Shown one piece after another: positions 100 to 434 of a stretch of DNA of 4,389 nucleotides (the first letter of the stretch is position 1; the number at the start of each line of letters is the position of its first letter). Both the position numbers and the translations under genes were made by a program. Under the pieces are notes generated by a model. It worked only from the letters and a program-made list of their open reading frames with translations. It was not told the origin of the DNA and searched no databases. Location: the IMG/VR virus record IMGVR_UViG_2698536511_000007; one strand, given 5' to 3'. The stretch is from a virus. Lineage: Duplodnaviria; Heunggongvirae; Uroviricota; Caudoviricetes.

Positions 100-363
100 G
101 TGTCCGTTAAACTCAGGCTACCTCAGGTTATTCGCTTCTGGGCATGGGCGGATCAACAAATGATAGACGGTAATGCAGATTGTAACGCTCGCGGCGTTAC
201 AAAAAGTGCAATAGATCGCATCACTTTTATGTCTGGTTTTGCTGATGCGTTAATTCAGGTTGGATGGCTGGTCGAAAATGACGGAGGGCTTTCTCTACCT
301 AACTTTGAACGTCATAACGGAAAAAGCTCTAAAAAAAACGGGCGGTTACAAACGAGCGAGTAA
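100..363 (+). CDS. Phage replication initiator, N-terminal segment (frame 1); probably part of one longer gene 100..802 disrupted by frameshifts
   Basis: 87-aa ORF starting at GTG 100 directly abutting an AGGAAGGAG stretch; alternative in-frame ATG at 160. It ends at TAA 361-363 immediately after an A8 tract (331-338). It sits upstream of a DnaT-like domain and a DnaC-like loader, the position of a lambda-O-like initiator. The N-terminus may be affected by the neighbouring IS. Confidence 0.5.
   Translation: MSVKLRLPQVIRFWAWADQQMIDGNADCNARGVTKSAIDRITFMSGFADALIQVGWLVENDGGLSLPNFERHNGKSSKKNGRLQTSE
182..200. repeat. Inverted repeat GTAACGC-tcgcg-GCGTTAC (candidate initiator-binding site / iteron)
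   Basis: Arms 182-188 and 194-200 are exact reverse complements. The same heptamer recurs at 391-397, 403-409 and 426-432. Confidence 0.4.
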
Positions 364-390
364 CAAAAATACGCGAACTGAAACGAAAAG

Positions 391-409
391 GTAACGCTGC
401 CAGCGTTAC
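391..409. repeat. Perfect palindrome GTAACGCTG-c-CAGCGTTAC (candidate initiator-binding site / iteron)
   Basis: 9-bp arms around a central C, seen directly. It is flanked by A-rich tracts (363-389) and a further GCGTTAC at 426-432. Confidence 0.4.
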
Positions 410-434
410 ACAAACGGATCAAAAAGCGTTACCA

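Follow-up and report, generated by a model that had tools for sequence, protein, structure and literature searches.

A candidate replication origin of the lambda type inside the initiator gene of a decayed Rac-like prophage

A prophage-derived stretch of DNA, analysed here at its full length of 4,389 nucleotides (hereafter the window), carries a cluster of GTAACGC half-sites within its replication initiator gene. These half-sites are probably the recognition sites (iterons) of the prophage's own initiator, arranged as a lambda-style origin inside the initiator gene. The core of this origin likely spans positions 391-470, and not the whole of 182-432. The reading draws on enrichment of the motif, conservation of its position, selection acting at the DNA level, co-variation with the N-terminal domain (N-domain) of the initiator and the predicted fold of that domain. 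A candidate phage replication origin inside this gene had been proposed in an earlier note made from the sequence alone, and sequence comparison supports it through enrichment, conservation, N-domain co-variation and a layout like that of ori-lambda. The element in the window is a relic, residing in a decayed Shigella/E. coli prophage. The features of the window are as follows.

1-125, minus strand: left end of IS600, with its terminal inverted repeat and the beginning of orfA; it matches IS600 in 435 plasmid records.
125-802, plus strand: prophage replication initiator pseudogene (PHROG 2509; alignment to loci L001 and L002).
180-202 (core 182-200), no strand: auxiliary palindrome TTGTAACGC-TCGCG-GCGTTACAA, a candidate initiator site, conserved in relatives.
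321-338, plus strand: A-tract beside the linker array (alignment to L001 and L002).
343-364, no strand: two degenerate half-sites (cGGTTAC, 343-349; GAGTAAC, 357-363), with exact GCGTTAC in relatives.
391-409, no strand: main linker palindrome GTAACGC-TGCCA-GCGTTAC, an iteron-like 19-bp dyad, conserved in relatives.
426-432, minus strand: terminal half-site GCGTTAC, 23 bp from the preceding half-site and abutting the polypurine tract.
434-454, plus strand: 21-nt all-purine tract AGAGGAAGAGGAAGAGGAAGA, the longest purine run in the window.
455-476, plus strand: short AT-rich stretch (TCTAAATACTGATC) and C-run (alignment to L001 and L002).
809-1555, plus strand: ydaV, an intact gene for a DnaC/IstB-like helicase loader (Pfam IstB_IS21, E=1e-19, and Bac_DnaA; PHROG 50).

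The prophage portion of the window (125-4291, 4.17 kb) is Rac-like lambdoid and shares 99.3-99.9% identity with a prophage of E. coli FDAARGOS_944 (locus L001). IS600 ends lie on both sides of it, at 1-125 and 4292-4389. The left copy, which the earlier note had missed, is inserted in the initiator gene, where it truncates the first 36 codons; these codons and the upstream palindrome have been removed or displaced, and homology to L001 begins at window position 125. The right copy truncates the DUF1367 gene, and ORF 3943-4338 terminates in IS-derived codons. The intact gene order in L001 is cro-like, ydaT-like, a 262-aa 'hypothetical protein' (WP_038340159.1, the intact initiator), ydaV, DUF977/Ren-like, QueH, hokD and DUF1367. 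The product of 809-1555, which follows the initiator gene, belongs to a family described as 'DnaC-like helicase loader' (PHROG 50), its homologue in L001 is annotated ydaV, and it is the presumed partner of the initiator. Further downstream of the replication module, the L001 annotation places QueH (epoxyqueuosine reductase) at 2391-3026 and hokD (a Hok/Gef type I toxin) at 3254-3409. A masked run of 262 N bases (2123-2384) lies between the DUF977 gene and QueH; L001 carries a hypothetical gene of 118 aa and the beginning of queH at this place.

Alignment to L001 and L002 revealed that the initiator gene of the window has been broken three times, by the IS600 truncation, a +2 frameshift and a 10-bp deletion. 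The first frameshift is due to two extra A in the A-run at 331-338 (A8 versus A6 in intact copies), and the second to the loss of 10 bp between TCCCCCT direct repeats after position 470. Both frame breaks had been placed within 182-432, which is correct for the A-run, but the deletion lies 38 bp beyond that interval. The IS600-fused, frameshifted ORF (window 82-363, MLFQEGVSVKLRLPQVIRFW...KKNGRLQTSE) is identical to a 93-aa Shigella sonnei protein, P0023, which makes Shigella sonnei the probable source of the window. The window copy is thus unable to encode its own initiator and has lost the upstream site. With three breaks in the gene and IS600 in place of the upstream site, the origin could fire only with a matching initiator supplied in trans; it is at most a silent origin, which a related prophage could activate. 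Many database proteins of this initiator family are also truncated or frameshifted within the linker, and the A-run, GAR repeats and C-runs of the origin region look like slippage hot spots in decaying prophages.

The intact initiator belongs to PHROG 2509, 'replication initiation protein' (E=1e-89), and a Pfam scan returned no family at E<=0.01. It comprises a winged-helix N-domain (~aa 10-95), a disordered linker and a DnaT-like C-terminal domain (aa 170-262). Modelled with AlphaFold2, the N-terminal 146 aa give a confident fold at residues ~10-95 (block pLDDT 77-92), with a helix-turn-helix and then a beta-hairpin wing, and disorder beyond residue ~99. The model was built on a shallow alignment of 17 sequences, because most of the homologous proteins recovered were fragments, either truncated or frameshifted. 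The likeness of residues 170-262 is to the C-terminal domain of DnaT from E. coli (2ru8_A, E=9.5e-5), and a match to the 'O-like' family PHROG 678 is confined to the C-terminal part. The combination of winged helix, disordered linker and DnaT-like domain therefore describes a DNA-binding head, a flexible linker and a primosome-related tail; with the DnaC-like loader gene next in line, the arrangement is an analogue of lambda O-P. A reading of the protein as a lambda O homologue was dropped, since no Pfam family was found and hhalign of the family alignment against lambda O gave a probability of 0.25%.

The heptamer GTAACGC or its complement GCGTTAC occurs at 182-188 (+), 194-200 (-), 391-397 (+), 403-409 (-) and 426-432 (-) and nowhere else in the 4,389 bases, exactly as had been reported. 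Against these five occurrences 0.41 were expected, and five or more were reached in 0 of 200 shuffles. The two palindromes were also recognised previously. The first, TTGTAACGC/GCGTTACAA, has arms of 9 bp (180-188 and 194-202) rather than 7 bp as first described, and encodes a loop of the N-domain (aa 53-60). The second, GTAACGCTG/CAGCGTTAC, does have arms of 9 bp (391-399 and 401-409). Of the two pentameric half-sites noted between them, GTAAC lies at 360-364 as described, while GTTAC is displaced by one base, to 345-349 from 344-348. Exact GCGTTAC is present at the equivalent of 357-363 (~+335) in six relatives (L055, L063, L067, L068, L074 and L076), a comparison by which the half-sites at 343-364 are decayed members of the linker array. 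The A-rich tracts at 321-338 and 363-389 are present where they were said to be. The cluster had been likened to the lambda origin, which lies in the interdomain linker; 391-432 does lie in the linker, and not 182-200, which lies in the region coding for the N-domain.

Relatives were sampled in several ways. Protein similarity was the sole criterion for a set of 80 viral contigs that encode the N-domain (62-100% identity), taken from at least 536 viral-contig homologues. The heptamer was found at the same two places in all 80, at +149 to +179 and at +335 to +415, and some subgroups carry further heptamers upstream, at -30 to -55 from the start codon. Among 19 non-redundant relatives, also chosen by protein similarity only, every one has an exact GTAACGC-N5-GCGTTAC in the N-domain coding region. 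In 17 non-redundant, protein-selected loci, 122 heptamers fall between -100 and +460 (12.8/kb), and the remaining 48 kb hold nine (0.19/kb), about the random expectation. Distances between neighbouring half-sites in these 17 loci are quantised at 12 bp (52 cases), 23-24, 33-35 and 45 bp, in keeping with helical phasing; the pairs include 13 '++' and three '--' at 12 bp, and ten '--' at 23 bp.

Other loci were selected on the motif alone. A reciprocal scan of 2.9 million viral contigs for GTAACGC-N5-GCGTTAC returned at least 120 matching stretches. Among the palindrome matches listed, an N-domain homologue (30-100% identity) is encoded by 101 of 120 stretches and is no more than 700 bp away from 166 of 187 palindromes; each of the 52 stretches that carry more than one palindrome belongs to the family. 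In 53 divergent loci (<60% identity) the heptamer reaches 9.6/kb in the first 460 bp of the gene versus 0.064/kb outside, with peaks at +100-199 and +300-449 and linker arrays of 2-6 half-sites phased at 11-12 bp, near-matches included. Both of these sets were chosen on the motif; they show association and layout with a biased frequency, so only the protein-selected sets are free of ascertainment bias. Heptamer density exceeds that of the flanking phage DNA by 70-150 times, and the sites hold the same two positions in prophages and phages down to ~40% protein identity. Enrichment and conservation were among the checks suggested in the earlier note, and both support its proposal.

Could the heptamers be a product of chance, or a by-product of a conserved N-A-x-x-V-T peptide motif? 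In the window lineage the two palindromes do encode N-A-x-x-V-T in one frame. The shuffles given above, however, speak against chance, and a codon alignment of 22 sequences (<95% nucleotide identity) speaks against the peptide. Where third codon positions fall within the arms of the heptamers, their entropy is 0, 0, 0.27 and 0.27 bit, compared with ~0.9-1.9 bit at comparable two- and four-fold sites elsewhere and 1.4-1.7 bit just outside the arms (third base of the Ala codon, spacer codon); synonymous positions are frozen only inside the heptamers. Moreover, the linker palindrome is one DNA sequence read in three frames as differing peptides: G-N-A-A-S-V-T in the window lineage, V-T-L-A-A-L in Klebsiella phage ST11-OXA245phi3.2 (L005) and V-T-P-T-A-L in a third group (L006; phages vB_EcoP_ZX5 and TL-2011b). 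A non-coding copy also exists, upstream of the gene. With shuffles, frozen synonymous positions and frame changes all pointing the same way, chance or peptide constraint is barely conceivable and was excluded as an explanation; by these comparisons, selection on the heptamers acts on DNA and not on peptide. The N-domain palindrome falls in a loop (54-56) of low pLDDT that accepts insertions of 4 and 15 aa, so that the sites sit at points of least constraint on the protein.

A 12-nt duplication (GGTAACGCAGAG followed by TGTAACGCT) was observed in phage Rac 442/2 (L004:1376-1406) and in many viral contigs (e.g. L040). It creates a third, directly repeated half-site at +149 beside the N-domain palindrome, together with a 4-codon insertion, and shows the site array growing inside coding sequence.

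Hairpins in the mRNA, serving stability, attenuation or processing, would also use inverted repeats. Each full palindrome could form a stem of 7-9 bp, and all lie on the transcribed strand of one operon. The stem sequence, however, is invariant across sites and phages with zero compensatory changes, the spacing fits the DNA helical repeat, and many half-sites stand alone or in direct '++' pairs that are unable to pair. Given how often half-sites are solitary or directly repeated, and given stems that never co-vary, we hold RNA hairpins to be very improbable.

With the heptamers placed on the DNA, the partner that recognises them can be sought in what varies along with them. The earlier note had supposed the sites to be bound by the N-domain of the initiator, and the sequence comparison agrees: the motif changes when the N-domain changes. 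GTAACGC is kept in Xanthomonas phage CP2, Pseudomonas phage VW-6S and Ralstonia phage YL1 (42-47% identity). At equivalent places TGTCCGC/GCGGACA is found in Klebsiella phage BUCT711, Salmonella phages epsilon15 and SPN1S and Pseudomonas phage phiPSA1 (N-domain 28-33% identity), and TGTCACA/TGTGACA in Vibrio phage 1.211.A. The ydaU gene of the E. coli K-12 Rac prophage provides a further case. Its C-terminal 124 aa are 81% identical and ydaV is common to both prophages, but its N-domain is unrelated (DUF1376) and GTAACGC is absent from the gene; the interdomain position holds four or five (C/A)AGATGTTCAAACA repeats, among which TGTTCAAACA/TGTTTGAACA form an inverted pair. The site classes GTAACGC, TGTCCGC, TGTCACA and TGTTCAAACA therefore follow N-domain divergence. 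In relatives, C-terminal module swaps occur just downstream of the linker cluster.

The same comparisons bear on whether another protein binds the sites, be it a host transcription factor, YdaT, the DUF977/Ren-like winged-helix protein or YdaV. Genes for DNA-binding proteins are indeed close by, including the Cro-like, YdaT and DUF977 HTH proteins. Against this, the Klebsiella phage of L005 keeps the motif without a YdaT, DnaC-like or DUF977 gene; in VW-6S the upstream neighbour encodes a KilAC protein and the downstream one a protein like lambda P; yet other neighbours occur in CP2, YL1 and metagenomic contigs; and K-12 Rac has YdaT and YdaV without the motif. As for a host factor, the hosts span Escherichia, Klebsiella, Xanthomonas, Pseudomonas and Ralstonia, and among enterobacterial phages the motif switches according to the N-domain. 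Flanking genes thus vary widely among motif carriers, with the N-domain as the motif's only constant partner, and because of this variation another binding protein is improbable.

The main rival to an origin is that the palindromes act as operators only, of the initiator or another repressor, giving autoregulation or a transcriptional roadblock, with the true origin elsewhere in the prophage. Intact copies such as L001 carry a third full palindrome, TGTAACGCTGCGAGCGTTACA (L001:3865-3885), 14 bp before the ATG and beside the Shine-Dalgarno sequence, a position typical of autoregulation, and this palindrome may be an autoregulatory operator. In iteron plasmids, inverted repeats bound by dimers act as operators. 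Furthermore, the two or three clusters of sites extend over ~450 bp, unlike the single tandem block of lambda; being so dispersed, some of the sites may be purely regulatory. Among relatives, however, whole subgroups (L005, L006, L080-L087 and nearly all divergent loci) lack the upstream palindrome, while every relative has the internal clusters. A conserved polypurine tract invariably adjoins the linker array, and such a tract serves no evident purpose in repression. Moreover, repeats occupy the interdomain place in at least three specificity classes and in the unrelated K-12 ydaU, as they do in lambda. Because the upstream site is dispensable in many lineages and the internal clusters and purine tract are universal, an operator-only role is weakened, and we consider it unlikely.

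The polypurine tract follows straight after the last half-site in every specificity class, as ...GTTACC(A/T)AGAGAAGAGAAGAGAAGA or (GAGGAA)n and then a few A/T-rich bases, and is retained across all three motif classes. Coding-strand purine runs of 15 nt or more (median 21) begin between +350 and +478 in 121 of the 138 distinct loci of the family; by comparison, 1.14 Mb of flanking DNA contains 46 runs of this length, both strands counted. The commonest context around the terminal half-site in the 138 loci is 'AAAAAGCGTTACC' and then the purine run; AGCGTTACC directly precedes the run in 52 loci and GCGTTACCT in 17. The tract of the window encodes an acidic EEEEEE stretch. The C-run that follows it, within 455-476, is also present in K-12 Rac ydaU and so belongs to the C-terminal module.

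A duplex-stability profile placed the two least stable 40-bp stretches of the gene at ~295-340 (the A-tract region) and ~428-470. The latter, our candidate unwinding stretch, has an A+T content of only ~60%, and the window has still less stable DNA in intergenic regions elsewhere; the candidate stretch is thus only moderately unstable, so we infer rather than observe a DUE here. Five GATC (Dam) sites were noted in 125-470 (151, 214, 417, 453 and 465) versus ~1.3 expected, two of them bordering the polypurine tract; the candidate origin might be subject to control by methylation or SeqA.

If the half-sites are indeed recognised by the initiator, the 19-bp dyads (7-bp arms, 5-bp spacer) and the extra half-sites one helical turn apart would be its iterons. 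The origin core would consist of the linker cluster (391-432), the decayed sites (343-364) and the polypurine/AT stretch (434-470), located between the winged-helix DNA-binding domain and the DnaT-like C-terminal domain. N-domain dimers would occupy the phased sites and distort the DNA, the polypurine/AT stretch next to them would open, with 434-454 as the start of unwinding, and host DnaB would be brought in by the DnaT-like C-terminal domain together with the phage DnaC-like YdaV. The palindrome at 182-200 and the third one before the start codon would be auxiliary, perhaps with a part in cooperative looping or autoregulation. These steps of binding, unwinding and helicase (DnaB) loading at the candidate origin are inferred by analogy.

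A more specific design may be entertained as a possibility, albeit a doubtful one, in which the family has a distinct and widespread bipartite origin: a loop dyad at +149, a phased array ~200 bp downstream and an invariant (GAGAA)n/(GAGGAA)n opening element, looped together by the initiator. The polypurine repeat would then be a specific strand-opening or single-strand-binding element, with a role like that of DnaA-trios, and not generic AT-rich DNA, and the design would be common to temperate phages of Enterobacteria, Vibrio, Pseudomonas, Xanthomonas and Ralstonia. The distance between the +149 and linker palindromes ranges over 198-264 bp with no clear quantisation, so phasing supports no claim of looping. 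Were this bipartite design true, at least three specificity classes (GTAACGC, TGTCCGC, TGTCACA) on one fold would offer a system for studying initiator/site co-evolution.

The plainer reading of initiator iterons around a linker core, which we prefer, provides a concrete candidate origin and recognition sequence for a large family of initiators that is without a Pfam model and whose members are often listed only as hypothetical proteins. The family is common in Rac-like prophages of E. coli and Shigella, in epsilon15-like phages and in many environmental phages. Such a candidate aids annotation of prophage replication modules and prediction of cross-activation or initiator competition between co-resident prophages, and is an example of DNA sites kept inside coding sequence by synonymous, frame-independent selection. 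The general picture of lambdoid replication is unchanged, and the window copy is a non-functional relic.

Three known systems invite comparison. In the iteron plasmids pPS10, F, R6K and RK2 a winged-helix Rep binds short direct and inverted sites, with the DUE by the last site. Plasmid iterons are tandem direct repeats of 17-22 bp outside the rep gene, usually accompanied by DnaA boxes. The window family shares with them the winged-helix initiator, the mixture of direct and inverted short sites and a possible operator palindrome before the initiator gene. It differs in that its sites lie inside the gene, are mostly inverted and are phased at 12 bp, and in that the DnaA-box consensus TTWTNCACA is absent from the window; an iteron plasmid origin was rejected on these grounds.

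The second is oriJ of the K-12 Rac prophage, which is referred to as an experimentally active origin by citation in PMC3945230 and in the reference list of PMC11014345; the literature searched also records oriJ plasmids. The ydaU-ydaV region is a module of the same type with the same gene order (cro-like, ydaT, initiator, ydaV), and ydaU likewise has repeats at the interdomain position followed by AT-rich DNA and C-runs. In K-12 MG1655 the repeat cluster lies at L003:3972-4078 (1421471-1421577 of the record) and is a candidate for the core of the classical oriJ origin. The difference lies in the DUF1376 N-domain and in (C/A)AGATGTTCAAACA repeats where the window has GTAACGC. Identity with oriJ was therefore rejected, the N-domain being unrelated and the repeats being of the TGTTCAAACA kind, and the window origin would have another specificity. 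No nucleotide-level map of any Rac-type origin and no study of this initiator family were found in the searchable literature, the older subscription papers on oriJ being outside its coverage; PMC6582345 contains nothing about Rac.

The closest parallel is ori-lambda, of phage lambda and Stx phages, in which 19-bp dyad iterons form an origin in the middle of O and two iterons plus the AT-rich region suffice for unwinding (PMC7466680). The lambda origin sequence has four ATCCCTCAAAACGAGGGA dyads and then an A-rich segment with an 18-nt purine run. In both systems the origin, or candidate origin, lies within the initiator gene between the N-terminal DNA-binding and the C-terminal parts; in the window family the linker cluster (391-432) comes after the winged helix (aa 10-95) and before the DnaT-like domain (aa 170-262). 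Both have several dyad sites of ~19 bp (here 182-200 and 391-409, with the half-site at 426-432) and then a long all-purine run, of 18 nt in lambda and 21 nt in the window, where the stretch around it is locally but only moderately unstable. Both also have a site sequence that co-varies with the DNA-binding N-domain of the initiator, a helicase-loader gene next in order and then a Ren-like gene. The 19-bp dyads and the purine-asymmetric, locally less stable stretch after them, between the domains, draw the parallel to ori-lambda.

The two differ in their proteins, as the initiators are not homologous, the C-terminal domain of the window family is DnaT-like and its loader is DnaC/IstB-like rather than lambda P. 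They differ also in their sites: lambda has four tandem iterons at 20-24 bp, whereas the window family has small arrays of half-sites phased at 12 bp, another cluster ~200 bp further upstream, in the part of the gene that codes for the N-domain, and in many cases a third ahead of the gene, and its unwinding candidate is a moderately A+T-rich GAGAA/GAGGAA repeat. For lambdoid phages it is textbook that the origin lies within the initiator gene, and the element is therefore of an expected kind; what is new here is that the initiator is of another family, which has a recognition sequence of its own and a conserved tract of the GAGAA type.
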